IMG/VR virus record: IMGVR_UViG_3300009702_000001
Coordinates: 1 to 64,000 of that record
Source of the DNA: a virus
Strand: one strand, 5' to 3'
Length of the DNA: 64,000 nt
Shown piece after piece: positions 2,083 through 51,342 of the stretch. Below the pieces are notes generated by a model. That model saw only the letters and a list, made by a program, of their open reading frames with translations. It ran no database searches and was not told the DNA's origin. Both the position numbers and the translations under genes were made by a program. The first letter of the stretch is position 1. Each line of letters begins with the position of its first letter.

Positions 2083-3558
2083 TCAATGACGTTTGCGCCA
2101 ACGTTTGCGGCCAGGAGTTATCAATCCGGGTTCGCTTCCCCGAGCCCGTTTCTTTTTCTTCCGTTTCAACGCGGTTCGGATAGCAATATCCAATGCGTCA
2201 AGTAAATCCTTGTAAGCCCCGTTCGGGAAATTTAGCAACTGTTCTTCCAACTCCCCGTTTTTCTCTGAAGTATGGAAGAAAATTTCCCCCCGTTCAAACC
2301 GAACCGAAAGCCGGTCCATACGGGTATTTTTATCTTTGTCCGTAAAGACGGGAATTGCCGGAAGGTGACTAGTCCGCTTTTCCGCTTTCAGGCTTTGAAC
2401 CTTGCTTGCCTGGAATGCGTTTGCTTCAATTCCGATTGCAATGGGTTCATGGGTATTATAATGCTTTTCAATTTGGTCATCTTGTTGTTTCAGGGACAAC
2501 TTGTTGTGATAGTAATCAAGGATATAAATGTTGAACGTCCGGGGGTCAATGCCGATGGTTACGATTGCGAATTTTGCATTTTCCTTTTTCTGTCCAATCG
2601 CAAGGTCAACCCCGGTGAATACAACTAACTTCTTCGGGAATGAATCAACGTAACGGAAAAACTTATCATCAAAAACGTAACCCTGAATTCCGGCCGCGTT
2701 TTGATTCATTTGGGCATTGAAATAAATGCGCCCCATTGATTCCCGCAAGGCATGTAATTCGTCCGTTGTCCAACGCTCGGGAAGGTTGGTCGAATCATCC
2801 TTGGGCTTGATTGCGGGAATGATTTGCGCCGAATCCTTGAAGTATGGGTCATGGGTAAGAAGATGGTTGTATAAATCATCCGGATGATACCGTGTTCCCA
2901 ATACCCTGATTTCGGTATTGGCATCCGTAACGCAAGGCATAAGCGTTGTATAAAACCATTGTTTAACTTTATGCCGGCCTCCCTCGGTTCGGGCGTTCTT
3001 CAAGGTAACCAAGTCATCACAGTAAATAATATCAAAATGCGCGGACGTAATGCTTGAATCAACGCCCGTTGTCATAACGGTATTTTCTTTGCGCGGAAGC
3101 GTTCTTCCCGCTACGTTGATAGCATCTTCATTCCAAATTTCCCCTTGTTGGTTTCCGAAGATTTCAACCGTTCGGGGATGCGTCAAGCATTCCTTCAATT
3201 CGGAAAGGAACCCTTGGGCATGGGTTACGATATCGGACGCAAACAAAATTCGGATATTGGGGTCCCGAAGGATTTTGACAAGGGCAGACCCAACGGTCCC
3301 AACGGTTGACTTCCCGCAACCCCGAGGGGCAAGTTGAAGGGTCTTGGTATGCTGGCATTGATGCCAAATTAGGATTTCATGGATTGGGTCAAAGACATAG
3401 CCCAATTCTTCAAGTAATAGGTCATACCTTCCTTCATTCATTACCGAGTCATAAACAACCCGATTCCTGATATCCCGCAATTGACGGAATGAACGCAAAT
3501 TTTCATTCCGCTTTTGACGTACCGAAAGATTCTTATGTTTGGCAACGCCTAACTGCAC
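2083..3558 (-). CDS. terL: terminase large subunit
   Basis: 491 aa with a GTG start. Walker A-like LAPRGCGKST, Walker B-like FDIIYCDD, C-terminal RNaseH-like nuclease part (GVDLAIG..., GIEANAFQ). Confidence 0.9.
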   Translation of the reverse strand: MQLGVAKHKNLSVRQKRNENLRSFRQLRDIRNRVVYDSVMNEGRYDLLLEELGYVFDPIHEILIWHQCQHTKTLQLAPRGCGKSTVGTVGSALVKILRDPNIRILFASDIVTHAQGFLSELKECLTHPRTVEIFGNQQGEIWNEDAINVAGRTLPRKENTVMTTGVDSSITSAHFDIIYCDDLVTLKNARTEGGRHKVKQWFYTTLMPCVTDANTEIRVLGTRYHPDDLYNHLLTHDPYFKDSAQIIPAIKPKDDSTNLPERWTTDELHALRESMGRIYFNAQMNQNAAGIQGYVFDDKFFRYVDSFPKKLVVFTGVDLAIGQKKENAKFAIVTIGIDPRTFNIYILDYYHNKLSLKQQDDQIEKHYNTHEPIAIGIEANAFQASKVQSLKAEKRTSHLPAIPVFTDKDKNTRMDRLSVRFERGEIFFHTSEKNGELEEQLLNFPNGAYKDLLDALDIAIRTALKRKKKKRARGSEPGLITPGRKRWRKRH

Positions 3559-3689: not shown

Positions 3690-4145
3690 CTAATTGTCGG
3701 AATCCATTTCCCGAGCATCTTTGCCCCCAACCAACAACAACTGTTCGGGAGTCTTGATAATTAATCCCAAGTCTTGACCCAACTTAACCAAGGAATCAAC
3801 CATATCAGATTGTGTCTTAACCGCCGCTACATAGGCTTGGGCATTTTTCCATTTCATTGCCTTCAAGGCATCCTTCAAATCTTCCAAATCTCTAATCAGT
3901 TGTTGTTTCCTCCCAACAACTTCCGAGAAAATCCGAAGGGGAGTTTTGCTTTGTTGTTCTGATTCCGCTTCTTCGTAGTATTTATTGAACAGGGACTCGA
4001 ACTGATTCGTATTAAGCCCCATTGCTTCAATGATTTCTTCCCGAGTTTTGCCCTTGTTTAGAAGCAAGATGAATTGCGCCAATTGAAGCCGTTGTTGGGA
4101 AACGGTCTTCTTCTTCAACTTCTTCTTCTTTGGCGTCTTATTCAT
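3690..4145 (-). CDS. putative small terminase / DNA-binding protein
   Basis: 151 aa immediately upstream of terL. Basic N-terminus (KTPKKKKLKKK), HTH-like segment (KTREEIIEAMGLNTNQ) and a coiled-coil. The call is from position and composition only. Confidence 0.4.
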   Translation of the reverse strand: MNKTPKKKKLKKKTVSQQRLQLAQFILLLNKGKTREEIIEAMGLNTNQFESLFNKYYEEAESEQQSKTPLRIFSEVVGRKQQLIRDLEDLKDALKAMKWKNAQAYVAAVKTQSDMVDSLVKLGQDLGLIIKTPEQLLLVGGKDAREMDSDN

Positions 4146-7109: not shown

Positions 7110-7508
7110 ATGGCAAAGAAAATCAAAGGCGAAAGCAATCCCGGCGCCGGAGTTTCCACGGGACACAAGCGCAAGCGCAAAGCCGGCAAGGATATTGTCC
7201 CCCGGTTGAAGGTCATTGACGGGGCAAGCTATATCCTTATGGCTTCTTCCCGGGGCAAGTCGCTTCAAACCGCGTTGCTTTGGGCTCCGGCGCCGAAGGA
7301 ACCGAAACGCCCCTTCCTGTTCCTTTTTGACCTTCCGGACGGTCAAGGCGGAACCATGATGATTTCCGTCCCCATGGAAACGGTCCAAGCCCAAGCGGTT
7401 TATGCCGCGCATCCCCGGCGCGTCCCCAAGGATGAAATGCCCCCCGAGTGTCCGCTTGAAGATATCCCCGAAGAAGAACCGGCCCCCGAGCCGGCCCCCA
7501 AGGGTTAG
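7110..7508 (+). CDS. hypothetical protein (basic N-terminus, acidic PEP tail)
   Basis: 132-aa ORF. GAAAGGAAGG lies 7 nt upstream of the ATG and a terminator follows. Confidence 0.55.
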   Translation: MAKKIKGESNPGAGVSTGHKRKRKAGKDIVPRLKVIDGASYILMASSRGKSLQTALLWAPAPKEPKRPFLFLFDLPDGQGGTMMISVPMETVQAQAVYAAHPRRVPKDEMPPECPLEDIPEEEPAPEPAPKG

Positions 7509-9345: not shown

Positions 9346-9405
9346 TGGGGGCAATATCCTGTCCGGCATGGACAGGGCTTGACTTGACTTTGATAGTTGG
9401 GTTGT

Positions 9406-11205: not shown

Positions 11206-11537
11206 TTCCCGGAATCCTTCAAGCGCATATGCCCGGTTACAATCAACGCGCCTTCAAGCCTACCCTGAAGCCGGACGCATCGGGTCATCAACTCGGCAAT
11301 AGTCAACCGACATTGTTTCAACGCTTCTTCAAGTTGCATCTTGTCCGCTTTAAGGGAATGAACCTTCCCCCGGGTTTCCCGGTGTTCATCCTTTTCTTCT
11401 TCAAAGCGTCGGACCCAATTGTCCCTTTCCCGTTGTTTGAAGCAAGCCGCTTCCCGTTTTTCCTGCAACATCTTTTGAAGTTGCGCGTTGACAGCTTCCA
11501 ACTCCGAAACCCGTTCTTCCAATTCCTGCTTTGTCAT
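11202..11537 (-). CDS. coiled-coil protein
   Basis: 111 aa with heptad-like, charge-rich sequence (ELEERVSELEAVNAQLQKMLQEKRE...). Confidence 0.6.
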   Translation of the reverse strand: MTKQELEERVSELEAVNAQLQKMLQEKREAACFKQRERDNWVRRFEEEKDEHRETRGKVHSLKADKMQLEEALKQCRLTIAELMTRCVRLQGRLEGALIVTGHMRLKDSGK

Positions 11538-11623
11538 ACCATTCCCTTCCGTTGCTTTGACTCGACAATCAATCCCGCAATGTAAAGTTTTGTTTCGGGT
11601 GGTATGATATCAAAATATTTCAT
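11534..11623 (-). CDS. micro-ORF (29 aa, MKYFDIIPPETKLYIAGLIVESKQRKGMV)
   Basis: Below the ORF-track cutoff. Its stop overlaps the next ATG (GTATGACA). Confidence 0.35.
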   Translation of the reverse strand: MKYFDIIPPETKLYIAGLIVESKQRKGMV

Positions 11624-11631
11624 TGCGAAAT

Positions 11632-11733
11632 TCAGGTAAATCGGATAAACCAATTCATCCGGTTGTAAAACGGAAGCAAACTCCCGTTTTTCATCTTCTT
11701 CCCAAAGATGACTTCCGCTTCTTCAATCTTCAT
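11632..11733 (-). CDS. micro-ORF (33 aa, MKIEEAEVIFGKKMKNGSLLPFYNRMNWFIRFT)
   Basis: Its start overlaps the end of the upstream 45-aa ORF (ATGAAGATTGA). Confidence 0.35.
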   Translation of the reverse strand: MKIEEAEVIFGKKMKNGSLLPFYNRMNWFIRFT

Positions 11734-11860
11734 TGCTGTTACTCCGAAACCACCTTGACGGAAACCCGCGCCCCCTTCCATCCGGCTTGTCCCCCCGCAA
11801 GGTGGATTTCATAACAGGATTGTTGCAGTCTTTGAACGCGCATTTGGGGCGCCTATTCAT
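11723..11860 (-). CDS. small protein (45 aa, MNRRPKCAFKDCNNPV...)
   Basis: Strong SD GGAGGGAAGG 7 nt upstream of ATG 11860. First gene after the 1.85-kb ORF-free block. Confidence 0.5.
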   Translation of the reverse strand: MNRRPKCAFKDCNNPVMKSTLRGDKPDGRGRGFPSRWFRSNSNED

Positions 11861-12849
11861 CGGGACCTTCCCTCCAGTGTAATGGGCTCGGGGGCCAGCT
11901 CGGACGTTCCCATGGACGCGCCTAAAAAGGTTCCTTTCAATCCGAGGAAAACAACCGGCCCCCGAGCCCATGACCCAACCTTACCCGGTCCGCTTCCCCT
12001 CAGTAACAGTTTTTTTCCCTTATGGAAGGGTTGACCCGGGAAGCCCTTTTCAGGTCAACGGTCATAGAAGCCTAAGGGGTTTCGGCCGGCTCCCCGTAGG
12101 GGCTCGGACGTTCCCCCTAGTATTCTTCTTTTACCGTTGGCGGTTGAAGGTCCGGCAGGGTTCCCCGAGCAAAGCGAGGGGGAAGGGCAACGGAACCCGT
12201 TGGGACCCCAGGGACGGCCGTTGAAGCGGGGGGGGGCTCGGGTCCCAACGCTTACCAATTTAGCAGGATTTTTCAGGGGGACCCCTGGGATTAACGGTCA
12301 AGTGTAGGTTGATGTAGGTGCGACTTCCCCAAAATGATGCGCGCATCCCTTGCGGGCGAACCCCACGGGGGGGGTAGGCACACCACCCACACTATCCTAC
12401 ACCCCCCCACCCCCTCCTACATATGGGTATATTGGCTCTGGTGTAGGTATAGGTAGGTACCAGGTTCCCTTGTTCAATCATCCCATTGTCACCCCGGAAG
12501 ACTTCCTTTCAATCTTGGTTATGGTCCGTAGATATGCCCTTGGGTTGACTGGAGTCTTTTTCTTCCCATGGTTGCCCCCATGTTTGGGACTCGACTTGTT
12601 CCCCCCGGCTTCTTTCCGGCCTTTATCACGCCAGACAGTAACAAGATTGCTTCAACTTCTCCTCATTATTTATCAACCGAAGTCCTGATTTTCTTCTTCA
12701 ATTCTAGTTATGTACCCATCGTCAATATAATAATTGTTTTTTTTCTTCCTTCCCTTGAATTGTTCCTCTATGTGTGCGCCGGCATCCCCCGAAGAAAAGC
12801 GATACATAGGAAAGGAATCTGTCCCGCTACCGAACCCAACCGGGACAAC

Positions 12850-12930
12850 GGCTGGAGCTCCTCGGGAGCTCGGCAGTCCCGAAGGGCTGGAGCTCCTCGG
12901 AAGCTCGGCAGTCACGAAGGGCTGGAGCCC
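12850..12930. repeat. 35-bp tandem repeat, about 2.3 copies (GGCTGGAGCTCCTCGGRAGCTCGGCAGTCMCGAAG)
   Basis: Units at 12850-12884, 12885-12919 and partial 12920-12930, with 2 mismatches. The unit length is not a multiple of 3. Confidence 0.85.
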
Positions 12931-13522
12931 TAGCAATCCCTTCCCGGGCTCTGGAATAATACACGGGGGGCATGTAGGCAAATGTAGGGAAAGCGGCGAC
13001 AAAAATCAGAGGAAAAAGGTCCGAAAAAAAATGGCTTGCCTATCAACCCGTCCCCTTCCGTTTCTCACATTAGGAACCCCAGGTCAACAGGCAACCGGCA
13101 GGATAGAGGGCCAAGGGGGCCGGCATGGGTCTGGGGGAAGCAATGGGGGAACGTGGGGGCTCGGGGGTTGATGGAGGGCAATGACGGGCAGGGGGGACGG
13201 TATCGGGCTTGCTATGGAGCTCCTCTTGTCTTTCCCCTTGCTTCTTCTTTAATCTGTTTCCGTTTTGATTGCTAACGCCTTGATATTGAAAGGTTGTTGC
13301 GCTTTTATGTAAGACTTTCCCGTTGATTCCCTTGGGGCTTTCCGTGTTCTGCTTCAATTGTGAGAAACGATAGGATACCGCTAAAATCCTGTAAGTAATT
13401 GGAATGATGAAGGGAAGGGTTGCAAAAACCCGATGGAAGGCGAAATGTAAGACAAACGGCAGGGATACCTGAAAAATCCTTGAAGGAAAAGGAATCATTG
13501 AACAATCGGTTGCAATCGGTTC

Positions 13523-13550
13523 TTACAAAAACTAGACCGTTACCTATAAT
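13523..13550 (+). promoter_or_regulatory. sigma70-like promoter TTACAA N16 TATAAT on the plus strand
   Basis: Read directly. It points toward the stop end of the minus-strand lipoprotein gene. Confidence 0.4.
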
Positions 13551-13820
13551 TGACGTTCTTATCCCGTTGATGTAAGACCCCAAAAAGGTATTTTGGTTCA
13601 AGGAGTTAAAATGTAAGAAACAGGGGGCAACCCCGTAGGGGTTGAAGGGGCCGCAAGCGGCCCGTCAAGGGCTCGGGCTTGACTGTAGCGTTAGCGGAAG
13701 GCATCCCGAGGGGGCATCCCCTCGGGCTATGGTTCTAGGGCTCGGGGTCTATGCTTCTAACTTGATAGCCTAGCAGGGGGGACAGGGGCTCGGGGGGAAG
13801 AGCTCCGGGCTTCTAGGGCA

Positions 13821-14306
13821 TCAACCGCCTAGGGGCTCGGGCTCGGCAATAACAACCCGGCATTCCCGCAAAACTCCGGGGGCAAAGTAGAGTGAAGGAA
13901 CCGGAAGGGAAGGGGCAAAGTCCGGGGGCTCGGTATAGACAACCGGGGAGCAAAACCCGTCCGTTACCTTCCGCCAATATGAAGCCCCAACAACAAAAAC
14001 CCTTTCAAACGCTTGGAAGGTTGACCCGGGGCTTCCCCAATGGGGGACAGAGATGAACGCGGAAGCGTCAACCGTCGTTTGGATATCCTCGGTTCGGAAG
14101 CGTTGGCAACTCGGACAAGGGGGCTCGGGCTCGGGGCAGACAACGCAAGGGTCCGCGCCGGCATCCCCGTCCGGAGCTCCCCCGTCAAGGGAAGGTCCCG
14201 CGTCTTGGGCTCCGGCATCCGGCATCCCTCGGGAAGCCGCGCTACAATAGAAAATCAGGGACGCAACGGTCCCCAGGGCCAGGGCTCTGGCAACGTTCTT
14301 CATCAT
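13821..14306 (-). CDS. putative secreted protein / lipoprotein
   Basis: Start moved to ATGATG 14306 after GGAAAGGA. Signal-like MMKNVARALALGTVASLIFYCSAAS, then an Asp/Gly/Pro-rich linker and a Cys-rich segment. Confidence 0.6.
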   Translation of the reverse strand: MMKNVARALALGTVASLIFYCSAASRGMPDAGAQDAGPSLDGGAPDGDAGADPCVVCPEPEPPCPSCQRFRTEDIQTTVDASAFISVPHWGSPGSTFQAFERVFVVGASYWRKVTDGFCSPVVYTEPPDFAPSLPVPSLYFAPGVLRECRVVIAEPEPLGG

Positions 14307-14397
14307 GGTCTTTTCATCCTTTCCGTTTGTCATGCGTTTTCACAAGCGCAACAATTCCAGGTATTCGGGGGGGAACAGTCCCTCCCCCTGCTAGGGG

Positions 14398-14649
14398 TTA
14401 TTGCCTGGGGGTCAATCGAGAAGCGTTGATAATCAAATCCCAATCATCAACCGTATCTCCCCGGCAAACCTTGTAATCCCCGGCCGCGTCAAGTTTTTTG
14501 ACCACGGTATAGGGTCCAACATAACCGTCCGACACATATTCACCGTTCCCGTGGTAGACCGGCCCCACAGTGACCTTATCACCGGTCCGATACCAAGTCG
14601 AAATTCTCCGATTCAAATTCATGTTTCCGTATGCTTCTTCTTCTGTCAT
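14398..14649 (-). CDS. small orphan protein (83 aa from the SD-led ATG; 94 aa if the upstream in-frame ATG 14682 is used)
   Basis: GGAG lies 8 nt upstream of ATG 14649, with a consensus promoter upstream. Confidence 0.6.
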   Translation of the reverse strand: MTEEEAYGNMNLNRRISTWYRTGDKVTVGPVYHGNGEYVSDGYVGPYTVVKKLDAAGDYKVCRGDTVDDWDLIINASRLTPRQ

Positions 14650-14689
14650 TGTCTCGACTCCGTTTGTTGTTGCGTTGTTCATGGTTATA

Positions 14690-14717
14690 AATATAGCACG
14701 GGGGCTCGGTTTGTCAA
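14690..14717 (-). promoter_or_regulatory. strong sigma70-like promoter TTGACA N16 TATATT
   Basis: -35 at 14717..14712 and -10 at 14695..14690. ATG 14682 lies 7 nt after the -10. Confidence 0.65.
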
Positions 14718-14793
14718 CAAGAAAACGCAACTTTTTTCAAAAAAAGTGATAACTACCCTGTATCATAAGGGAAAAAGATGATTTTTTTTCATT

Positions 14794-14893
14794 CGGGGCC
14801 GGGAAGGGGGCTCGGGGAGCTCCGCTCGGGGCCGGGAAGGGGGGGGCGCGGGGAGCGCCGCCCGGGGCCGGGGAGGGGGGGGCGCGGAGCCGT
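14794..14893. repeat. G-rich 33-36-bp tandem repeat x3 (CGGGGCCGGGRAGGGGG..CGGGGAGCKCCGC)
   Basis: Units start at 14794, 14827 and 14863. Intergenic, lying between a terminator and the next promoter. Confidence 0.7.
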
Positions 14894-14916: not shown

Positions 14917-14949
14917 AAAAAAAAAGCCCCCAGGGGCTTCCTGGGGGCT
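14917..14949 (-). terminator. intrinsic terminator (AGCCCCCAGG AAGCC CCTGGGGGCT + T9)
   Basis: 10-bp stem plus a long T-run on the minus strand, downstream of 15012..15293. Confidence 0.65.
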
Positions 14950-15011
14950 CGGGGCAAGGTAAGGGGACCCCCGGACAAGCAAAATCCCCCAGGGGCTTAG
15001 GGGGGGGCAAG

Positions 15012-15293
15012 TCAACGCCGGTCTTCAAACCAGACTTCGCATGACCCGTCTGGGTTTTCCTGATAGCGAAAAATTATATACGGATTGTCCGGGTCCGGTT
15101 TAGGTTGCTGTCCCCGTTCGCCAAGGGGGCCAGAGCACGAACAATTAAGCATTCCGCAAAGGGCATTTTTTGCCCTTTTAACCTGCCGGGGGGACAAATA
15201 ATATCCATTGCGGCCGGAATGCGGCTTCAGGTTGACTTCCGTGCCGTGAAAGTCATTTGTAAGCGTGACAAGCCCAAGGTCCGATTTTGTCAT
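15012..15293 (-). CDS. small orphan protein (93 aa from the SD-led ATG)
   Basis: The leader is identical to that of 14398..14649, with GGAG 8 nt upstream of ATG 15293. Contains CGMLNCSC. Confidence 0.6.
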   Translation of the reverse strand: MTKSDLGLVTLTNDFHGTEVNLKPHSGRNGYYLSPRQVKRAKNALCGMLNCSCSGPLGERGQQPKPDPDNPYIIFRYQENPDGSCEVWFEDRR

Positions 15294-15333
15294 TGTCTCG
15301 ACTCCGTTTGTTGTTGCGTTGTTCATACCTATA

Positions 15334-15362
15334 TTTATAACGCGGCTTTTCCGTACTGTCAA
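15334..15362 (-). promoter_or_regulatory. strong sigma70-like promoter TTGACA N17 TATAAA
   Basis: -35 at 15362..15357 and -10 at 15339..15334. ATG 15326 lies 7 nt after the -10. Confidence 0.65.
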
Positions 15363-15401
15363 CCCTTTTCGGAAACTTTTTTCATTTTTTTCAAATTCCC
15401 T

Positions 15402-15767: not shown

Positions 15768-15795
15768 AATATAGCATCGTTCCCGAAGAAGTCAA
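15768..15795 (-). promoter_or_regulatory. strong sigma70-like promoter TTGACT N16 TATATT with A-tract UP-like element (to about 15827)
   Basis: -35 at 15795..15790 and -10 at 15773..15768. On the minus strand, AAAAAAAAGTAAAAAAAAATAAAAAA lies immediately upstream. Confidence 0.65.
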
Positions 15796-17480: not shown

Positions 17481-17535
17481 TTTCTTTGCTCCGTTTTCGG
17501 GGTTGGTATTTCGTTTCGCGTTGTTCATGTATATA

Positions 17536-17564
17536 TATATAGGGGCAGACCCCTAGATTGTCAA
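17536..17564 (-). promoter_or_regulatory. strong sigma70-like promoter TTGACA N17 TATATA
   Basis: -35 at 17564..17559 and -10 at 17541..17536. ATG 17528 lies 7 nt after the -10. Confidence 0.65.
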
Positions 17565-17692
17565 CAGGTTTTTCAAAAAAAAGTAATCTTTTTTTCAAGT
17601 CCCCGAAACAACAACGCTTTTTCAACAAATGTAAGAACAGATTTCGGACGGAAAGGGGCTCGGAAGGTAGGTTCCGGGAACTCCGGGCAAAG

Positions 17693-17744: not shown

Positions 17745-18248
17745 TTAGGCTACCGAGTAACGGGAATCCCGCTTGCTTCCGGTCCGCTTGACGGTCCCGG
17801 CCGAAACCAAGTCCCCCAGGGCTCGGGCAACGGGGCGCCGGTCCAAACCGGCCGCGTCCGCGATTTCCCGAGCGGACATGGGCTTGCCCTTGGACCCGGA
17901 CAGAACCTTCATTGCGGCTTTCCGGGCTTCTTCGGAAGCCCCCCGCTTGCGCCGCGCCTTGCCCTTGCTCGGAGCCGCGTTCCCCTGAAGGGTCCCCAGG
18001 GTCATGGACCGGAGCAACGCGCCCCAACCCTCGGAATCGGCCGCGTCAAGGGCTTCCGCCAAGGTCATACGCTTGGGCATGGACCTGAACCGCTCCCCGG
18101 CAAACGCCTTGATTGCCGCTTCCTGTCCCCCCGCTTGGGTCAAAAGGAAATTGTAAAGGGCATCCCCGTTGACGGGGGCCGCGTCCGCGTTCTTCTTCGG
18201 GGCCGTCTTGGTCTTCTTCGGGCTCGGCTTGTTGGTCTTCTTCGGCAT
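17745..18248 (-). CDS. DNA-binding protein: basic N-terminus plus C-terminal winged-helix
   Basis: MPKKTNKPSPKKTKTAPKK..., with C-terminal MSAREIADAAGLDRRPVARALGDLVSAGTVKRTG (MarR/ArsR-like wHTH). Confidence 0.6.
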   Translation of the reverse strand: MPKKTNKPSPKKTKTAPKKNADAAPVNGDALYNFLLTQAGGQEAAIKAFAGERFRSMPKRMTLAEALDAADSEGWGALLRSMTLGTLQGNAAPSKGKARRKRGASEEARKAAMKVLSGSKGKPMSAREIADAAGLDRRPVARALGDLVSAGTVKRTGSKRDSRYSVA

Positions 18249-21050: not shown

Positions 21051-21093
21051 GTTGCCGGCTCCGTTGTTTTGTTTCGCGTTGTTCATGTCTATA

Positions 21094-21122
21094 TTTATAG
21101 CGCGGCAACGCTAGACCGTCAA
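21094..21122 (-). promoter_or_regulatory. strong sigma70-like promoter TTGACG N17 TATAAA
   Basis: -35 at 21122..21117 and -10 at 21099..21094. ATG 21086 lies 7 nt after the -10. Confidence 0.65.
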
Positions 21123-21144
21123 CCCCCTTTTTCTCACATTTTCT

Positions 21145-21422: not shown

Positions 21423-22448
21423 TCATTCCCCGTCAAGGGGCAATTCGGATTGTTCGGGCTCGGGCTCGGTTGCCGGTTCGGGTTCCTCGGGGTAGGATTC
21501 CAGAGCATCAAACAAGTCCCGTCCGCGCAACCGCGCCGGTATCTTATGCGCCCGGCAAACCCGGTCCAACCAAGAAACAACGTCTTGATACTCGGGCGCC
21601 CCTTGCAACGCTTCAACCGTGTCCGGGATAATCCGCCCCCCCGCTTCAACCCCAAGATAACCGTTCATCCGGGTAACCCCCGCCCGAGTCTTGGGGCCGG
21701 TCATGCCGTCAATTTCAAGGGGCTCCGGGTATCCATCGGGCAACGGGTCCGGGGCTCGGGCTTTGTCCATTTCATTGACAACGATTTGAACCGTTCCAAT
21801 CCCCGTCCGGTCAATGTTCCCCGCCCAACCAAACAAGGAACCGATTTCCCATTGACGGGGCAGATACAACCCGGACCCAAGGGTTTCATACCAAGGGACT
21901 TGAAATCCGAGGGTTTCCCGAGCCCAAGGGACAATTGCTTCATAGACTGCCGAACCCGGGTCCCCCTGCCGTTGGTCGCTTCCCTGCCGATGACAAACTA
22001 GGTTGGTAAACCCGCCCCCAAGGGCAACGCCTTGTCCGACCAACCAAAGAAGAAGATTCTTGACCCCTTGGATTTGTTCGGGGGTCAAGTCATGGGTCCG
22101 ACCCCCACCTTTCCAAATAGTCCGCTTGTCCCCTTCAATACCGGCAAAATGCCCGTCAATTTCAATCCCAACACTGAAATTGTTGAAGCCGTTTCCATGC
22201 CAAACGTAATGCTTCAAGTTATTGACGTATAAAACGGTTCCATCATACAAAACCGCGCAATGACAGGCAACATCATAATACCTTTCGGGCTTCAATCCCA
22301 AGCGGCAAGCCGTTTGATGAAGCATGATATGGGAAACCTTACCCATATCCCTTTCACGGGTTGACCCTTTGTTCAATTCATGTTCCCCGGTTATGTTCCT
22401 GAATTTGTCCGGGTCAACAAACGGGAATAGGACTTCCGCTTCCGTCAT
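21423..22448 (-). CDS. N-acetylmuramoyl-L-alanine amidase endolysin with PG-binding repeat
   Basis: Amidase_2/PGRP-like HIMLHQTAC, WHGNGFNNFSVGIEIDG and LVCHRQ. C-terminal IDGMTGPKTRAGVTRMNGYLGV (PG_binding_1-like). Confidence 0.85.
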   Translation of the reverse strand: MTEAEVLFPFVDPDKFRNITGEHELNKGSTRERDMGKVSHIMLHQTACRLGLKPERYYDVACHCAVLYDGTVLYVNNLKHYVWHGNGFNNFSVGIEIDGHFAGIEGDKRTIWKGGGRTHDLTPEQIQGVKNLLLWLVGQGVALGGGFTNLVCHRQGSDQRQGDPGSAVYEAIVPWARETLGFQVPWYETLGSGLYLPRQWEIGSLFGWAGNIDRTGIGTVQIVVNEMDKARAPDPLPDGYPEPLEIDGMTGPKTRAGVTRMNGYLGVEAGGRIIPDTVEALQGAPEYQDVVSWLDRVCRAHKIPARLRGRDLFDALESYPEEPEPATEPEPEQSELPLDGE

Positions 22449-26773: not shown

Positions 26774-26845
26774 TGACCCCAACGGGATTTGAACCCGTAT
26801 CGCCGGCGTGAAAGGCCAGTGTCCTAACCGTTGAACGATGGGGCC
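26774..26845 (-). tRNA. tRNA-Glu (anticodon TTC)
   Basis: Folded by hand: 7-bp acceptor GGCCCCA/TGGGGTC, anticodon stem CTGGC/GCCGG with loop CTTTCAC, T-arm ACGGG TTCAAAT CCCGT. 72 nt. Confidence 0.9.
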
Positions 26846-27001
26846 GAAAGTCCCGACTTGCCCCGCGTCTTGGCATCAACAAGACGGAAGGTTCCCTTTG
26901 ATGCGTCCCGAGCCGGGCAACGGGAAAGGGTCTAGGGGTTCATAAATTTAGCATGGGCTTCCTTCCTTTCGTTGTTGCGGATTACTACCATCCCCACACT
27001 A

Positions 27002-27072
27002 TTCGGGGGCCGGGATTTGAACCCGGGATATCGGAGTCAAAGTCCGAGGTTTTACCGCTAGACTACCCCCGA
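27002..27072 (-). tRNA. tRNA-Gln (anticodon TTG)
   Basis: Acceptor TCGGGGG/CCCCCGA (U1-A72), anticodon stem TCGGA/TCCGA with loop CTTTGAC, T-arm CCGGG TTCAAAT CCCGG. 71 nt, with one D-stem mismatch. Confidence 0.85.
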
Positions 27073-27076
27073 GCGT

Positions 27077-27160
27077 TGCCGGGTCCGGGAGTCGAACCCG
27101 GAAGGTATTTCTACCACTTAATTTTGAGTCAAGTGCGTTTACCGATTTCGCCAACCCGGC
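27077..27160 (-). tRNA. tRNA-Leu (anticodon CAA), class II with long variable arm
   Basis: Acceptor GCCGGGT/ACCCGGC, anticodon loop CTCAAAA, long variable arm, T-arm with GGTTCGACTCC. 84 nt. Confidence 0.9.
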
Positions 27161-27402
27161 TTAAACGTCTTTCGCGTTGATTTAAAATCAAACATATTCA
27201 TCAACACCGTTCGTTGATGAAACCTCAATTCAGCTTTACTAACTGTCTTGCCGTATGCCAACGCGCCGCAACGGCAACGAAGCTTGACCAGTTTGCAAAC
27301 CTCTTTTGTTCCGTCGTTGAACTCCAATAGATGAAACCCTTTGGAGTACATAGGGCGCCGGCCGCAAACTTGACAAACGATTCTTACATTAACCCCGGCC
27401 AT
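27139..27402 (-). CDS. zinc-ribbon protein
   Basis: ATG 27402. Contains CQVCG...CRCG. Its 3' end overlaps tRNA-Leu by 22 nt. Confidence 0.5.
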   Translation of the reverse strand: MAGVNVRIVCQVCGRRPMYSKGFHLLEFNDGTKEVCKLVKLRCRCGALAYGKTVSKAELRFHQRTVLMNMFDFKSTRKTFKPGWRNR

Positions 27403-27718
27403 TGTCAACACCTAATATACTAATGTGCCAAGCATCCAATTGTTCCGACTTATCAACGGGCTTGACGTTCGTTTCATATTCGGGCATACTTCGGACCCCT
27501 TCAACGATTGCTTCCCCGAGTTTTTCGAGCAATCGCAAACCGGCATATTGGGCGCCTTCAAGACTCGAATAGACCTTGTCCGATACCCTGGACCCAACCT
27601 TGAATCGGAACCCCCGTCCGCTCGGGTCCGGATAGCAATACAACTGAACCGGCCCGAAGTTGATAAAGGCAACATCATTGACCGGACATTTCCAGGTTTT
27701 CGGCTCTTTTACCTGCAT
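27389..27718 (-). CDS. hypothetical protein
   Basis: 109-aa ORF with an ATG start. Confidence 0.55.
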   Translation of the reverse strand: MQVKEPKTWKCPVNDVAFINFGPVQLYCYPDPSGRGFRFKVGSRVSDKVYSSLEGAQYAGLRLLEKLGEAIVEGVRSMPEYETNVKPVDKSEQLDAWHISILGVDNGRG

Positions 27719-39379: not shown

Positions 39380-40765
39380 CTACAATGGGTCCGCGCCGGA
39401 AGCGGTTTCATCTTCCGAAACCAATTCATCCCCGTCCAAGAAAACCCGTTCCCCGTCCGAGTCCGAGAAAACACCTTTTTCCTTTGTATGGTTGTAACGG
39501 ACAAAAGTTAGTTTGTCCCCATCTTGGGTAAAGTATTCCTTCCCCTTGACGCAATCAGTTACCTTTGTCGGTTCGGGCGCCGCGTCCGGCGCGTCTTCAT
39601 CCCCGTCTTCTTCGGGCTCGGGCTCGGCAGTCCCGGCCGGCATGATTTCTTCCCCGGCAGGAATCTTGACCTTCAACCCGTCTTCATCCTTGGCAATGCC
39701 GATTTTCTTTTTGCCGTCCCATTTAACGAATTCAACGGTTTCATCTTCATAGATGTAAGACTCCCCAGGTTCCGCGTCTTCAACGTCAACCGGGGCCGGC
39801 TTGCTTGACTTCTTCTTCGGGGCTTTCGGTTTGCTCGGGGGCTTGGGCTTGGACTTCTTCGGGGGCTCGGGCTTGGACTTCTTCGGGGGCTCGGGCTCGG
39901 GCTCGGGGGCCGGCTTGGGTTTCTTGGAATTCTTGACCTCGGGCTTGCTTGCCGTCTTCTTTTTGGTCTTCTTCGGCTTACTCGGTTCCTCGGTTTCAAC
40001 GTCCGTTCCAAGCAACGGGCAGTCAACAACGCACATTGCCCGGAGCAAATCGGTTGACGTTCCCGCATCCAAGTCTTGCGCGGAACCCGGGTCCGTATAT
40101 TGCGTCATATCAACCGCTTCTTCATCAAACAGGTCCCGGACGGCTTCCGTCAACGGACGCTTGACCGTTCCGGCCCCATACATATCGGTTCCCCGTTCAT
40201 CCTTGTCAAAGGTAACTTTGCAAGCATATGGGTTTTGCCAGGGGTCGCCTTCATCTTCCCCCAATTCTTCAATTTCTTCATCCCAAACCTTGTTTAATTT
40301 CTTGCCGGCCGAATACGGCAAAACCAAGACTTCGGGACCCTTCGGTTTCTCCCCCTTTTCGGTAACGTTGATGATACAGAAAAGGTATTCAGTCCGGGGA
40401 CGCATCAACCGCTTGCGCCAATCATACCCCTTCATTCCCAACAATTCCCCCTTCAAGTATTCTTCTTCATCCCCCCCGGCAGTCTTCAAGCGCAAAACAA
40501 CGTCATCCGGGTCAATGTCCGGAGTGTCATTCTTCAACCAAAGAATGAATTGATTGGTAATGTCCGAGTCCCCTTCATAGAAACGACGGATGCCCTTGAT
40601 TTCTTCTTCACCGTCATCATTTTCAACAACGCGCCGGAGCGTAACGGTAACCCGCTTTTCAATCTCGGACTTCGGATGAACAAAGAAAATAACCTTTCCA
40701 TCCTTGCGCCAATCCGTAAACGCGGCCCCCCGCTTTGTATCCGCTCCAAATTGCTTCCTGTCCAT
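39380..40765 (-). CDS. gp32-like single-stranded DNA-binding protein
   Basis: By-eye similarity to T4 gp32: GKVIFFVHPKS, EYLFCIINVTEKGEKPKGPEVLVLPYSAGKKLNKVW and GDPWQNPYACKVTF. Long K/P/E linker. Adjacent to the RecA-like gene. Confidence 0.6.
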   Translation of the reverse strand: MDRKQFGADTKRGAAFTDWRKDGKVIFFVHPKSEIEKRVTVTLRRVVENDDGEEEIKGIRRFYEGDSDITNQFILWLKNDTPDIDPDDVVLRLKTAGGDEEEYLKGELLGMKGYDWRKRLMRPRTEYLFCIINVTEKGEKPKGPEVLVLPYSAGKKLNKVWDEEIEELGEDEGDPWQNPYACKVTFDKDERGTDMYGAGTVKRPLTEAVRDLFDEEAVDMTQYTDPGSAQDLDAGTSTDLLRAMCVVDCPLLGTDVETEEPSKPKKTKKKTASKPEVKNSKKPKPAPEPEPEPPKKSKPEPPKKSKPKPPSKPKAPKKKSSKPAPVDVEDAEPGESYIYEDETVEFVKWDGKKKIGIAKDEDGLKVKIPAGEEIMPAGTAEPEPEEDGDEDAPDAAPEPTKVTDCVKGKEYFTQDGDKLTFVRYNHTKEKGVFSDSDGERVFLDGDELVSEDETASGADPL

Positions 40766-40791: not shown

Positions 40792-41388
40792 TTACTTGTC
40801 GCGGCTTCCGTGCCTTTGTTCAACGAAAAGCCCCTTGCGTTTCTGAATCAACTTGCCGTAACTTTGCAAGCTGGAAAGTCTACCTTCATAGGCTTCAAAC
40901 AATCGCCTTGCCGCGTCCCGCAATCGTTGGGACTTCCGCAAAACTTCCCGCGCCGCTTTATGCTCGGGGATATGTCCGGCAACCCAACGTTCAACGTCCG
41001 CAGTATAAACCCCGCCTTCCCATTTTTTATTCTTCTTCAACGTTGCGATTTCTTGCCGCGCCCGAGTAACCCAAATTCCCATCAATGCTTCATAGTCATC
41101 TTTGACCCGTTCATAATCCTCGGAAGCAACCGCGTAAATAAATCCGGCAAGGCGCATATCTTCCGGCGCGTCCCCAATCAGTTGACGCAAAACAGATTCC
41201 CCGGAAGTTTTCAAGTCCGTTTGTAATCGCTCCAATAATTTGGGGTAGACTTCCGCTATTGCCAAATGATTCAATTCATCATTCAAAACACTGTAACGGG
41301 TAGGATGGGGAGGGGCAATGGGCGCCGGCTTTTCCGGCGCGTCTTGTTGCTTCAACTTCTTCCGAATCTTTTTCAGTTTCTTGGGCAT
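40792..41388 (-). CDS. hypothetical protein
   Basis: ATG 41388 (MPKKLKKIRKK...) overlaps the dnaE TGA by 1 nt. Confidence 0.6.
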   Translation of the reverse strand: MPKKLKKIRKKLKQQDAPEKPAPIAPPHPTRYSVLNDELNHLAIAEVYPKLLERLQTDLKTSGESVLRQLIGDAPEDMRLAGFIYAVASEDYERVKDDYEALMGIWVTRARQEIATLKKNKKWEGGVYTADVERWVAGHIPEHKAAREVLRKSQRLRDAARRLFEAYEGRLSSLQSYGKLIQKRKGLFVEQRHGSRDK

Positions 41389-44300
41389 CAATCATCCCCC
41401 TCGGTATTCGCTTGATAATAGCGTTCAAAGGACATGACAGGACTTTTGCCGGATGAAGTATTCAAAAAATATCGGCGCGTCTTACCGTGTTCAACGCGGC
41501 TTTTCAAATGAAGAAGCGTCAAGGTCCCGGGCTTAATTCGCTTTGCATATGTTGTGTAATCGCTTGGCCACAATACAACGTCCCGAAAGGCGCCGGTCCA
41601 ATCCTGGCAACAAATGGTCATCATACGTTGACGCTTTTTTGTCAACCTTGTTTCCGCCGAAACGATAAAAACGCAAGTCCGAAACTTCCGCTTACCCTGT
41701 TCAAAATTCTTGATTGCTTCCCTGTTTTCCAACCATGAACGGAACCCGGCAAAGGGGTCCCGCATAATAAAGGCTTCCGGGGTCCCGGGCTCGGGGCGCG
41801 TTGCTCCGGGTTCCATCAACGCCCCCAGGTCAACAACTTCCCCGGCCCCGAGTTTCCAGAATCCTATGCTATGTCCAACAACGGCAAGCAATTTTCCAAC
41901 CGCAAGATTCCCGGCGCCAATGCGCCCAAGTTGGGCAACGGAAGTCCGTAGCGTTAGGGCTCCCGTGTCATCTTCAAGAATTACCTTTCCAATTCTGTTT
42001 TCGTAAGAATTTCCGTCTTCATCTTCCGAGCCCGGACCTTGGGCGCCCGGCCGGGATTCCTGATAGAATTTTACCTTTGTTACCGTCCCAACGAAGGCAT
42101 GATAAATTGAAGAAAACTCCCCATCAAACAGGGATTCAAACCGGCCGATTGGTTGAAAGGTTATATGTTCGCAACGTTCCGTCAACCAATCAACGGCTTT
42201 ACGGGCCGGATGAATACTCGGGGGAAGTGATACCAATTCAAGTTGATATTTTTCCCGTTCTTCCCCCGTGTATTGTCCCGCGTTCAAGTCTGCCGTCAAG
42301 GCATCTTCGGGGACCTTCAACAAGCCTTCATCTTCTACCTTGCTCCAATACTTGTCTTTAAGATGGGGCTTCTTCCGCGTCCGAATTTTCAGGATATCAA
42401 TGACGTTTGCTTCAACGTGTTTCGGGTCTTCAACAAGACGGTCAAGGGCTCCGATTCTTAGGAAGGCAACAACGGCCGTTCGGTTGGCGCCGCTCCGGTC
42501 AATGAAGTCCCGAAAGGATTTGTAAGGGGCGCCGGCAACAATCTTGTCAACCGTTTTTGCCCCAACCCCTTTCACGTCAACCAAGCCGGCCCGGATGGTA
42601 TTGGGCAAGTCCGGGTCAATGACGTAACTGAAACCTGAAATATTAACGTCCGGAGCCGTAACCGTTAGCCCGAGCCGTTTTGCTTCCCGGATATATAGGC
42701 GCCGCTTTTCCGCGTCCGATTCGGCTTCCAATGCCGAAGTCATAAATTCAAGGGGGTAATGAATTTTCAGATACATTGTCCAATATGAAAGGATTGAATA
42801 CCCCGTTGCATGGGCTCGGTTGAAACCATATTGTCCAAACTCGGCAATCTGATTCCATAGTTTTGAAGCGGTCCGTTCGGGGACTTCAAACCGCGCCGCG
42901 CCTTCAACGAAACGGTCAAGGTAAGTCCGGCGCAAATATTCAACGCCTTTTTTCTTCCCAATGTCCTTTCGGATTCTGTCCGCTTCCCCCCAGGTAAATC
43001 CCCCAATGTCGTGAACAATTTTGATAACATCTTCCTGATAAACCATTAACCCATGGGTTGCGTCAAGGATTTCATCAAGCATCGGATGAAGGGACTTGGT
43101 TTTTTCCCCATGGCGCCGCTTGACATATTCGTCTGTTATACCAGCATTCTGGGGGCCGGGTCTAATCAAAGAAGTTGTTGCAACCAAATGGTCAAACTTG
43201 TCCGGGCGCAATCGTTTCAACAAACGGATTGCCCCAAACTGATTCATTTGCCAAACCAATTCGGTATTGCCTTCCGCAAAGTTTCGGTAAACTTCCGGGT
43301 CATCTAATTCCCCCCAATCCTCGGGTTCGATTTTCTCCCCCGTCCGTTCTTCAACCAAGTCAATGCAACGCTGGATATATTGCAAACCGTTAATTCCGAG
43401 AATATCCAACTTCAATAAACCGACCGCTTCAACTTGTCGCTTGTCCCATCCAACAAGGTATTCCCCCTTTCCCGCCTTTTGCATTTGAACAGGGACAAGG
43501 TTACGCAACGGTTCATCCGATATGACAAGACCGGCCGCGTGAACCCCGAGTTGCCGGACGTTCCCTTCAAGTTTCACGGCATGATTTACAACATGGGGCC
43601 ATTTCCTTTTATACCATTGCGTTTCAGGAAACTCGGTAAACGTGTCCGCAAGGCATGAAAACGCCCGTTCATCCCCGTCCGGACGTTGAAGAACCAACTT
43701 GGTAACGGACTCCGTTTTCTGCCAAGGAACGTCATGGACCCGGCCAACGTCTTTTAATACAAGCCGGCCCTTCATCCGGCCGAAGGTTGAAATTCCGGCA
43801 ACGCGGGAACGTCCGTAACGCGCTATCAAGTAACGCTTGATTCTGTCCCGCGCCGCGCCGGCAAAGTCAAGGTCAATATCCGGATAGTCAATCCGGTCCG
43901 AGTTGATGAAGCGGGAAAACGGACAAGCATATTTCACAGAATCAAGGGCAGTGATACCTAGAAGAAATGCAACAAGGGAACCCCCAACGCTTCCGCGTCC
44001 CGGCCCAACCCTGATTCCGTTGCGCCGCGCATATTTTACCAAGTCCCAAATGACAAGGAAGTAACGGGAGAAACCCAAACGGGTTATCATATCCATTTCA
44101 AACTTGACCCGTTCCGAATATACTTCCCGCAAGGGGGCTTCCCTCGGGAGCTCCCCGTCAACCCAATCAATGATTCCGGTTTTGCCCTTGCTCTTTTCAT
44201 TGATACCGCGCCATTTCCAACCGTCCCGAACCAACCCCCAAAGTTTCTTGTCCGGCTCCCCGTCATACTTGTCTTCAATCTTCAACAGGGGTAAGACCCC

Positions 44301-45290: not shown

Positions 45291-45389
45291 AGCGTCCCTG
45301 TAATGCCCATGACGGGCCGCAAGGGGCCGGGGGTCACAATCCCCCGGCCCCGGGGTCAAACGCTTCCCAGGGCTCCCCTGGGGGACGTG

Positions 45390-50232: not shown

Positions 50233-51342
50233 TCAACGCCTTATAGTGTAATTGACCCGTGTAAGAATGCGGCTTTTATGTAGGGGCTCCGGCGCCCGTA
50301 GTGACTCCCCGGCCGCGTCCGGGTCTGCCCGTCCCCAATCGTCAAGGTCCATACCCCTCGGGGGCTCGGCAATCAAAAGCCGATGGTTCCGCAACAATTC
50401 CTTTGCAGTTGGAACCAATGAACGCGCCTTACCTTTCATATCCGGAACAATCACAACGGTTTGAAAGGGACGCAATAACAGGGCTTGCGCTTTGTGAACA
50501 ATCGGACCGTCCGTTGCGAAAATATTACGGCTTTCAGGGACGTTGTAAGAATCCAACAAACGTTCCCCCGTTAGCGCGTCAAAGATTCCTTCAACCAAAT
50601 AACACAAGTCATATAATTTGTTAGCTTTTTCCAAACCCCAAAGCGTTGTTGCAATGGTTCCTTTTTTCCTAGCATAAAGCCCCTTCGGTTCCCGATTACC
50701 TATACTTCTAGCATAAAAATTCACAATGGACAATCCGGAGCGTATTGGGAACACAACGCGCCCCCGGTATCGGTCCCGGCCCATACGGACCCCCCGCGCC
50801 GCTATTTGCTCGGGCAAGACCCCCCGGCCGGTCAAGTATCGGAAACCGGCCGTATCGGGTTTCAGGGGCTTCATACGGGCATATAAAGCGGCCGGGTCTT
50901 CTTCCCCCTTGTCCCGGACTCCGGACCCCCCGCGCCGCAATAGGCGCCGCTTGACGGTCAATTCAAGGGCCGCTTCTTCGGTTGCTTCAACCCCGGCAAA
51001 CTGTTCCAACCATCCCAGGGCTTCCCCGTAGCGTTGAAGCCCGAGCATATCCCGGGTCAAAGTGACAACGTTGCCCGAGCCCCCTTCCCCGGACTCCCGG
51101 CAAACAAAGCAAGAATGAAGCCCCCAACGCCCCCCGTCCGGGTCCGTATTGATAGACCAATGACGTTTACTGTCATCATGGAACGGACAAGCGGCCCATA
51201 TTTCCGAACCTTGAACGGACAGGTTTTTGACCCCCAATTCCCCCAACAAATCTTCAACGTCCAAGACTTCCCGTAACGCTTCAATTCTAACTTCCGGGTC
51301 AAGCCCGAATAAAACGCGCCGCTTTTCCGCCTTGCTAGTCAT
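50233..51342 (-). CDS. DnaG-type primase (CHC2 zinc finger plus Toprim)
   Basis: CPFHDDSKRHWSINT...CFVCRESG and YLVEGIFDAL (Toprim Glu). ATG 51342 overlaps the dnaB stop by 8 nt. Confidence 0.8.
   Translation of the reverse strand: MTSKAEKRRVLFGLDPEVRIEALREVLDVEDLLGELGVKNLSVQGSEIWAACPFHDDSKRHWSINTDPDGGRWGLHSCFVCRESGEGGSGNVVTLTRDMLGLQRYGEALGWLEQFAGVEATEEAALELTVKRRLLRRGGSGVRDKGEEDPAALYARMKPLKPDTAGFRYLTGRGVLPEQIAARGVRMGRDRYRGRVVFPIRSGLSIVNFYARSIGNREPKGLYARKKGTIATTLWGLEKANKLYDLCYLVEGIFDALTGERLLDSYNVPESRNIFATDGPIVHKAQALLLRPFQTVVIVPDMKGKARSLVPTAKELLRNHRLLIAEPPRGMDLDDWGRADPDAAGESLRAPEPLHKSRILTRVNYTIRR

Follow-up and report, generated by a model that had tools for sequence, protein, structure and literature searches.

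What purpose is served by nearly 2 kb of phage DNA in which no gene can be recognised? The question is raised by a block at positions 11861-13820 (1.96 kb) of a 64,000-nucleotide (nt) stretch of viral DNA (positions 1 to 64,000 of the IMG/VR record IMGVR_UViG_3300009702_000001), which is called the window here and within which all coordinates are given. The window is part of a phage genome of ~87 kb with nearly all of its genes on the minus strand, and the same phage genome is found as a contig of the European Nucleotide Archive (ENA; 87,436 bp) and as a contig of the Joint Genome Institute (JGI; 87,621 bp). A first-pass annotation had singled out the block as free of open reading frames (ORFs) and dense in repeats and hairpins, and had offered an origin or partition site, a packaging or recombination site, or a large structured RNA as candidate functions.

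The block is most likely a maintained, composite non-coding control region, conserved in part. Specifically, both of its edges would be ordinary transcript ends, and a core of ~1.6 kb would work as DNA, not as RNA or protein, in the form of an array of predicted protein-binding sites (RTGTARG heptamers phased at 10 bp, GGAGCTCC palindromes within a variable 35-bp repeat, the unique palindrome GATGCGCGCATC and runs of G5) around the most easily melted, AT-rich segment. The proposal of a DNA-level core is drawn from conserved sequence without a conserved fold, from phased sites, from easy melting and from the retention of unique palindromes. Tentatively, at somewhat less than an even chance, the core is taken to be a cis-acting terminal-repeat/packaging and/or origin junction; such a junction region would hold the terminal repeat and the concatemer-cutting and packaging signals of a T7-type terminase, and/or the start of replication.

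Coding potential and conservation

Protein coding can be rejected for the block, and the claim that it is free of ORFs holds. With codon-usage scoring trained on the long ORFs of the window (training genes score 0.205 +/- 0.10), every ORF of at least 30 amino acids (aa) in the block scores at most 0.03, and none of its ORFs has a match in Pfam or PHROG. A gene caller predicted a 142-aa ORF in the ENA contig (13070-13498, minus strand), for which no real homologue was found among 1.84e9 cluster representatives, the other match being Pro-rich low-complexity sequence. A sliding six-frame codon profile gives a single short blip, at 12690-12840 in a minus frame, which corresponds to a 44-aa ORF without a Shine-Dalgarno (SD) sequence. 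Scanning the block for small ORFs preceded by an SD returned only tiny or low-scoring ones plus two ATG-TAA start-stop units on the plus strand (13445-13450, GGAAGGcgaaATGTAA; 13611-13616, AAGGAGttaaaATGTAA), which coincide with ATGTAAGA repeats. No gap in the window exceeds that of 11782-13820 on a crude gene map, where the two apparent gaps that rank behind it arose as artefacts from the way in which overlapping ORFs were resolved.

Two relatives allow part of the block to be compared, namely a JGI fragment (L041, Ga0180433_10034789) with ~80% DNA identity and an NCBI contig (JABAHP010006350.1, L038/L042) whose TerL is 88% identical. The NCBI relative aligns with window positions 11861-12409, upstream of its zinc-finger gene, at an overall identity of 59% (44% in shuffled controls) and with six exact runs of at least 9 nt (0.1 in the shuffles); BLASTN gives 70% identity over the 200 nt of 12210-12409. 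The similarity is concentrated in seven islands (Table 1) and an eighth that is 68% identical (11880-11898). Four-fold degenerate sites in eight shared genes are 38% identical (n=467), that is, essentially saturated, and the islands stand well above this background; the left ~550 nt is therefore under purifying selection. Since the tblastn matches of the islands are spread over several frames and both strands, the conservation is at the level of DNA. Among the conserved elements are three TGTAGG/CCTACA heptamers of the cluster described below, the palindrome GATGCGCGCA(T/C)C and the GC stem of a leader hairpin.

The alignment that the first-pass annotation had recommended, as a way of telling covarying helices from conserved sites, thus yielded conserved islands that include the heptamers, and the covariation that it appeared to contain was not borne out. 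RNAalifold, run on the left part with two sequences only, found three to five double changes that keep a pair, but the two homologues fold differently when taken singly and no better than shuffles (z -0.4 and -1.5), and a conserved RNA fold is therefore not supported for this part. What the homologues have in common is sequence, with no sign of a shared fold, and the islands are accordingly read as sequence-specific DNA sites.

Neither pseudogene debris nor absence from relatives, the two outcomes named beforehand as fatal to an interpretation of this kind, was found for the left part of the block. Six-frame peptides compared with the loci of the relatives and with the rest of the genome gave no frame-specific match, and what did match came from flanking genes or was DNA-level similarity in several frames and on both strands; the exception is a flanking 45-aa remnant (11723-11860). 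By BLASTN the block resembles none of 50,697 phage records and 72,556 plasmids; the genome holds no second copy or dispersed repeat of it, and the window showed no long inverted repeat pair in which it takes part. When IMG/VR was scanned for exact 15-mers, 33 matches came up; BLASTN aligned none of them to the window, and they were taken as chance. Further IMG/VR scans with the neighbouring lipoprotein and recombinase, with TerL, with the zinc-finger alignment and with a DNA pattern of the conserved islands returned no relatives, and in GTDB genomes neither an exact 40-mer taken from the NCBI relative nor the zinc-finger alignment (185,579 genomes) matched anything.

The word composition of the block bears on its age. 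GATC occurs twice in the genome, against ~200 expected; among the 64 hexamer palindromes, 25 are absent or present a single time (CCGCGG, GGGCCC, ACGCGT, GACGTC, TGCGCA, GCGCGC, ATGCAT and others), the avoidance extends to non-palindromes such as CTGGAG and GAGGAG, and 317 hexamers expected at least 12 times occur no more than once. In the relative with the 88% identical TerL, 26 kb contain 220 GATC; the purge is therefore of recent date and particular to the lineage or the host, and it suggests that the host has a great number of restriction systems. The block has no GATC, lacks 23 of the 25 avoided palindromes and holds avoided words at a level 3-fold below Markov expectation, and this persistence of the avoidance indicates resident DNA, not recent foreign DNA. 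The avoidance is partly relaxed within it (68 avoided words, against almost none elsewhere): the block contains the genome's only GGTACC, five of the nine GAGCTC of the window and all but one of the five CTGGAG. Elsewhere the genome avoids GAGCTC, CTGGAG and CTCCTC, and where such 'forbidden' words are conserved or repeated, their retention argues that the positions are functional.

Elements of the core and the favoured reading

The short-motif arrays, tandem repeat, G-run cluster, AT-rich patch and plus-strand promoter listed in the first-pass annotation were all recovered, the last as a promoter-like site (Table 1). Half of the 22 RTGTARG sites of the window, most of which are intergenic, lie in the block (11; binomial P ~1e-11, for a motif chosen post hoc), and the spacings of the pairs there are 10, 10 and 20 bp. 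To the cluster in Table 1 can be added TAGGTAGG at 12451. The only site outside the block with two such heptamers close together is GTGTAAGAatgcggcttttATGTAGG at 50259-50284 (plus strand), at the 3' end of the primase gene in the replication module; formally, the RTGTARG motif is always a start codon followed by a stop codon. The 12-bp palindrome GATGCGCGCATC, which overlaps one of the conserved islands, is kept in the NCBI relative as GATGCGCGCACC. Just to the right of the AT-rich patch, at ~12800-12850, the GC skew and the AT skew of the block both switch, and its strand composition alternates between purine-rich and pyrimidine-rich segments. The G-run cluster is prone to form G-quadruplexes on the plus strand, and its minus-strand transcript is C-rich and G-poor, in the manner of a Rho-utilisation (rut) site.

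Each unit of the 35-bp tandem repeat contains the palindrome GGAGCTCC and a hairpin with a 7-bp stem. The number of units varies, with one fewer in the ENA assembly of this phage, and a CRISPR (clustered regularly interspaced short palindromic repeats) array was ruled out, as the units are directly adjacent and without spacers. A second GC-rich tandem repeat, of 36 bp and 2.7 copies (14793-14887), is found in a non-coding gap of 280 nt, beside a strong terminator (14924-14950); the ENA contig breaks there, and five positions differ within the repeat. Both repeats have GGAGCTCC-NCTCGG in common, which hints that a two-gene cassette (13821-14682) was inserted into a non-coding region that was once larger.

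The block is the sole large ORF-free gap, and it lies between a cluster of small genes with their own promoters and terminators (14-21 kb) and a module of small genes and terminase genes. A terminus or packaging role, possible though far from probable, fits (i) the matches of TerL to T7 gp19, its only PDB sequence matches (4bij and 8dgc, E ~8e-4), (ii) an analogy to the direct terminal repeats (DTRs) of cobaviruses, which are among the best cultured relatives of TerL (~25% identical) and (iii) the ends of the relatives' contigs, both of which fall inside the homologue of the block (at the equivalent of 12409 in the NCBI relative and of ~11946-11950 in the JGI fragment). The fit is indirect, and some overlap with an origin is possible. 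Of the packaging or recombination site put forward in the first pass, it is the packaging half that keeps this indirect support, together with that of the ORF-free position, and nothing ties the block to the recombinase. A replication-origin role, which would fit the phased repeats beside the AT-rich minimum, is plausible but rather doubtful: for the earlier suggestion of an origin or partition site there are the phased heptamers, the AT-rich minimum and the conserved islands, and missing are DnaA boxes, an adjacent initiator or Par gene among the proteins scanned and similarity to plasmids.

Several points weigh against a junction of either kind. Termini, terminal repeat and initiation are only predicted, from assembled contigs, and the conservation comparison extends over the left ~550 nt, up to the ends of the relatives' contigs. 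Both long assemblies run through the block, as would be expected of a collapsed DTR and equally of any internal region; they are assemblies of circular type, broken at the 36-bp repeat, and the two ends of the ENA contig join at ~14780-14810, within that repeat. Repeats, G-runs or low coverage could also make a contig break off, and a Logan contig of the same phage indeed stops at the 35-bp repeat. The link between TerL and T7 is weak, as TerL is at best ~25-27% identical to that of any cultured phage (50,697 phage records), which places the lineage far from anything cultured. The block has no DnaA boxes, the only TTWTNCACA of the window being at 36254, and no initiator gene is evident beside it: the neighbours are without replication domains in Pfam and PHROG, DnaB, DnaG and PolIII-alpha are encoded at 41-52 kb, and the replication genes are 17-40 kb away. 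Finally, classical iterons measure 17-22 bp, and the heptamers, defined post hoc, are far shorter.

Table 1. Coordinates of features in and around the block, given as window positions
Feature	Position	Strand	Remarks
Truncated zinc-finger gene N-terminus, 45-aa ORF	11723-11860	-	Intact genes of relatives 106-172 aa
Long hairpin, 18-19-bp GC stem from GGGCTCGGGGGCC, 60-nt loop	11879-11974	-	Inverted repeat; RNA fold
14-nt repeat GCTCGGACGTTCCC, two exact copies	11898-11911, 12102-12115	+	No other copy in window
Conserved non-coding islands	12370-12409, 12351-12366, 12310-12349, 12252-12277, 12210-12228, 12130-12163, 12086-12107		Seven; 73-81% identity to NCBI relative
RTGTAGG heptamer cluster	12302+, 12312+, 12396-, 12416-, 12441+ (region 12302-12460)		Pairs 10 or 20 bp apart
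12-bp palindrome GATGCGCGCATC	12336-12347		Holds the only GCGCGC in ~74 kb examined
AT-rich patch, GC 23-31%	12665-12765		Least stable and most AT-rich 60-100-mer of 64 kb
35-bp tandem repeat	12850-12928		2.3 copies, 95% matches
Heptamer pair ATGTAGGcaaATGTAGG, 10-bp spacing	12972-12988	+	
~7 runs of G5-6, 8-12 nt spacing	~13105-13199	+	GC skew +0.59
ATGTAAGA, four copies	13307, 13445, 13570, 13611 (to 13618)	+	
Sigma-70-like promoter CTTACA-17-TATAAT	13522-13550	+	10/12 positions; antisense to neighbouring gene
Four consecutive GC hairpins	13628-13644, 13648-13663, 13664-13683, 13705-13726	-	T-rich tail; z -3.2
Secreted/lipoprotein-like gene, 161 aa	13821-14306	-	
Resolvase-domain protein, 235 aa	16320-17027	-	
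TerL	2083-3558	-	
Amidase	21423-22448	-	
Three tRNAs	26774-27160	-	
PolIII-alpha	41388-45359		Replisome

Probable transcript ends at the edges and rival explanations

The left edge is marked by a deletion. What had been called a 45-aa gene is the remnant of a truncated zinc-finger gene that is intact in both relatives (106 aa, L041 90-410; 172 aa, L042 755-1270) and whose N-terminal 26 codons are conserved with synonymous-type changes. The BLAST breakpoints place the end of homology to both relatives at exactly 11782, beyond which it restarts at a 111-aa gene (L041) or a 129-aa gene (L042), and the window genome is therefore without 3.2-4.8 kb of cargo genes. The missing cargo (L041 171-3430, L042 836-5619) comprises zinc-finger proteins, a Pyr_excise (DenV-like) glycosylase and a SLOG/GDxRGAD protein. 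The long hairpin of Table 1, with an RNA fold of -61.8 kcal/mol and z -2.7, immediately precedes the SD of the zinc-finger gene (GGAGGGAAGG). The NCBI relative keeps the hairpin's stem (GGGCTCGGGGGC...GCCCCCGAGCCC) around a loop of 33 nt that differs in length and sequence, and the first copy of GCTCGGACGTTCCC is conserved in the JGI relative. Judging from this conservation, the left ~130 nt of the block is the leader hairpin and SD of the downstream gene.

At the right edge, the hairpin cluster is the only terminator-like structure on the minus strand between the promoter at 14717 and the terminator at 9346 (there is none else from 14256 to 9346). As can be inferred from this position, these right ~200 nt probably end the upstream early operon that starts at 14717. 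The lipoprotein-like gene beyond has a homologue (71%) on a short ENA contig (L037) with different neighbours on both sides, where homology stops at the stop codon; given that different context, the homologue is uninformative about the block. The gene behaves as a mobile 'moron', and the block is flanked on both sides by mosaic, variable accessory DNA.

The best-surviving alternative, itself possible if rather doubtful, is that the whole block is purely a zone of transcriptional control. The early operon from 14717 would then end at the hairpin cluster and/or by the action of Rho on C-rich RNA (13105-13199, minus strand), an internal promoter would produce a conserved 5' leader of ~600 nt with antitermination or regulator elements for the small-gene/terminase operon, and a phage regulator, perhaps the winged helix-turn-helix protein at 17745-18248, would use the heptamers and GGAGCTCC palindromes as operators. 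This fits the edges, where the conserved leader hairpin adjoins an SD and where, with no intrinsic terminator on the minus strand from the lipoprotein gene to 9346, the hairpin cluster carries a T-rich tail; the C-rich minus-strand transcript, the promoter-like site at 12512-12485 (minus strand) upstream of the conserved islands and the presence of RTGTARG near or in promoters at 27383, 8229 and 17629, in keeping with its mostly intergenic distribution, agree with it too. However, the site at 12512 is weak (9/12), no conserved RNA fold was seen, and 2 kb far exceeds the other module boundaries of this genome, with their tens to ~300 nt. Also left without explanation are the extreme AT-rich patch, the variable number tandem repeat (VNTR) and the G-run cluster.

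One or more novel non-coding RNAs are unlikely. The proposal would be of a plus-strand RNA that runs from the 13522 promoter through the hairpins, antisense to the lipoprotein gene, or of an RNA of the 35-bp array. It can draw on the quality of the promoter-like site (10 of 12 positions), on local z-scores of -2 to -3.2 at 13550-13850 and 12800-12950 and on the purine-rich plus strand of the right half, which resembles the sense strands of this genome. On the other hand, no plus-strand terminator was found downstream of the promoter, and the hairpins are palindromic and score equally on both strands. Minimum free energy z-scores fall below -2 only at 11850-12200, 12800-12950 and 13550-13850, and for most of the block they exceed -1. 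Nor is the block hairpin-dense, as had been thought at first: it has four perfect hairpins (stem of at least 7), the 12-14 kb bin has six where the window mean is ~6 per 2 kb, and other 2-kb bins reach 17-18. Terminator-like sites show no enrichment in the block, promoter-like sites a marginal one (6 against 2.9 +/- 1.6). An Rfam 15 cmscan of the whole window at the gathering threshold reported only the three tRNAs, and in E-value mode 11500-14400 gave three chance-level miRNA and snoRNA matches (E 1-4.8) and no GOLLD, ROOL, HEARO or OLE. With the large ornate RNAs GOLLD, ROOL and HEARO, to which the first pass had looked, the block thus shares the property of being a long non-coding stretch in a phage genome, and it differs from them in that their covariance models do not match it at E<=10, that it has no overall surplus of structure and that its homologues show no common fold.

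It is improbable that the block is largely functionless spacer, that is, decayed or rearranged hypervariable accessory DNA left behind by deletions and moron insertions. The deletion scar at the left edge (a truncated gene and 3.2-4.8 kb missing), the mosaic lipoprotein cassette, the polymorphism of the VNTR, the alternating purine and pyrimidine segments and the partly relaxed word avoidance are what such a history would leave. Yet the left ~550 nt are clearly conserved where neutral sites are saturated, comparisons with the relatives, the rest of the genome and databases revealed no protein remnant in a particular frame, and the absence of GATC and of 23 of the 25 avoided palindromes indicates that the sequence is not young foreign DNA.

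A site for recombination or partition is very improbable, whether it served the 235-aa serine recombinase in the manner of attP or res or was a centromere made up of short phased repeats. Short phased repeats are present and a Resolvase-domain protein is encoded 2.5 kb away, but the recombinase is short and looks truncated, neither ParA nor ParM was seen among the scanned proteins, the layout of the genome suggests a lytic phage, and relatives with the zinc-finger gene were not found in 185,579 genomes. Hardly credible is an anti-defence RNA mimic, in which pseudo-ToxI repeats whose copy number changes under selection would be provided by the 35-bp array (and by that of 36 bp at 14793-14887): the units of type III antitoxins are reportedly 35-36 nt long, which fits, and two natural variants carry different numbers of copies, but the array has no match in Rfam, no toxin-like neighbour in Pfam or PHROG and no framing by promoter and terminator, the copies number only 1.3-2.3, and the GC-rich simple hairpins are unlike the AU-rich, pseudoknotted units of ToxI.

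Genome context and comparison with known systems

Followed in the direction of transcription, the genome runs from TerS and TerL through structural and tail genes (which continue past window position 64000), replication genes, tRNAs and lysis genes to the small-gene cluster at 21-14 kb, the block, further small genes and TerS/TerL again. The portal protein is encoded in the window, as is a putative TerS at 3690-4145, and the phage brings its own replisome and recombination set (PolIII-alpha, DnaB, a DnaG-type primase, RecA-like and SbcCD-like proteins, a 5'-3' exonuclease and RuvC). Replisome, lysis genes and unidirectional layout suggest a lytic phage. The serine recombinase comprises 235 aa only, its Recombinase domain being cut off after ~35 residues, and a plus-strand gene at 7110-7508 opens with an inverted copy (39 nt, 79%) of the recombinase's first ~13 codons (MAKKIK...).

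In the 21-14 kb cluster several genes have a TTGACA-N16/17-TATATT promoter directly at the ATG, and strong terminators punctuate the cluster. Near-consensus sigma-70 promoters on the minus strand are located at 14690-14717, 15768-15795, ~15326-15363, ~17528-17565 and ~21086-21123. In the TTGACA-N16/17-TATATT family the ATG follows ~7 nt past the -10 element, which implies leaderless mRNAs; several of these genes begin with MNNA..., and two have the N-terminus MNNATTNGVETMT in common through a 42-61-nt DNA repeat (14641-14701, 15285-15345). Another promoter-like sequence, TTGACA-17-AAGAAT at 27383-27408 (minus strand), lies just upstream of the three-tRNA cluster, and its -10 element overlaps a ATGTAAGA motif.

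The octamer GGGCTCGG occurs 60 times on the plus strand and 22 times on the minus strand of the window, against an expectation of ~1 per strand. No reading frame is without it, 24 of the 82 copies are intergenic, and it often forms part of hairpin stems and terminators (copies are, for example, at 13669, 13738, 13786, 13833, 13839, 17719 and 39887-39899), and 10 plus-strand copies are in the block. The octamer, for which no match was found in the literature, may be a strand-biased signal of Chi type or similar.

Large conserved non-coding regions are where phages keep signals for the start of replication, for DNA cutting and packaging or for switching the gene programme. Knowing the ends and the origin of this genome would make it possible to orient it correctly, to predict its packaging mode and to engineer it, and the islands together with the retained 'forbidden' words amount to a short list of candidate protein-binding or cleavage sites. 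If the block were an ordinary promoter/terminator zone plus spacer, the finding would be routine.

For the favoured junction of terminal repeat, packaging signals and/or origin, the nearest comparison is with T7 and the cobaviruses. In T7, arrays of short repeats and promoters flank the terminal repeat. The DTRs of cobaviruses measure 159-173 bp, are 70-100% conserved among relatives and lie in an ORF-free region between gene modules (PMC6775973). The block likewise is ORF-free between modules, GC-rich and 60-80% conserved in relatives, it goes with a weakly T7-like terminase, and it has short phased repeat arrays, promoter-like sites and variable small genes adjoining. The T7 junction, however, is just downstream of gene 19, whereas the block is 7.7 kb from the terminase genes (14 kb in the relative); furthermore, the genome is about twice the size of that of T7, it has siphovirus-like tail genes, no phage RNA polymerase was seen in it, and its terminal repeat is only predicted.

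The second comparison is with origins that combine iterons and a DNA unwinding element (lambda ori, P1 oriR, lactococcal phage ori/'per'). Helically phased short repeats next to an AT-rich, least stable segment in non-coding DNA are common to these and to the block. The repeats of the block differ in being 7 bp long and of mixed orientation, not direct iterons of 17-22 bp, in having no adjoining initiator and in showing no similarity to plasmid or phage origins.

A third model is offered by T5, whose left terminal repeat contains untranslated regions with 1.2 kb of nested repeats and palindromes that are better conserved than the neighbouring ORFs (Davison, bioRxiv 10.1101/866236), a proposed injection stop signal (iss) being included in these untranslated repeat regions (bioRxiv 10.1101/866236). 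Membership of the T5 repeat regions was rejected, as there is no shared sequence and there are no paired DnaA boxes in long inverted repeats, of the kind that lies inside the ~10-kb terminal repeat of T5; the lineage is unrelated, and the block is also without DnaA boxes of any arrangement and without evidence of a long terminal repeat or of two-step injection. What the two have in common is an untranslated region of 1-2 kb composed of direct and inverted repeats and palindromes, better conserved than the adjacent small ORFs, and the block closes a cluster of small early-type genes that takes up ~7 kb, ~8% of the genome. It is a long shot that the block represents an undescribed phage cis-element for entry control or injection pausing and end protection, or else a new large regulatory RNA of a kind that a comparison of two sequences would miss. 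As a cis-element, sited after the ~8% of early genes that would be first in, it would be functionally analogous to the T5 iss and built from different parts, namely phased heptamers, a G-quadruplex-prone tract and clustered GGGCTCGG acting as oriented Chi-type sites.

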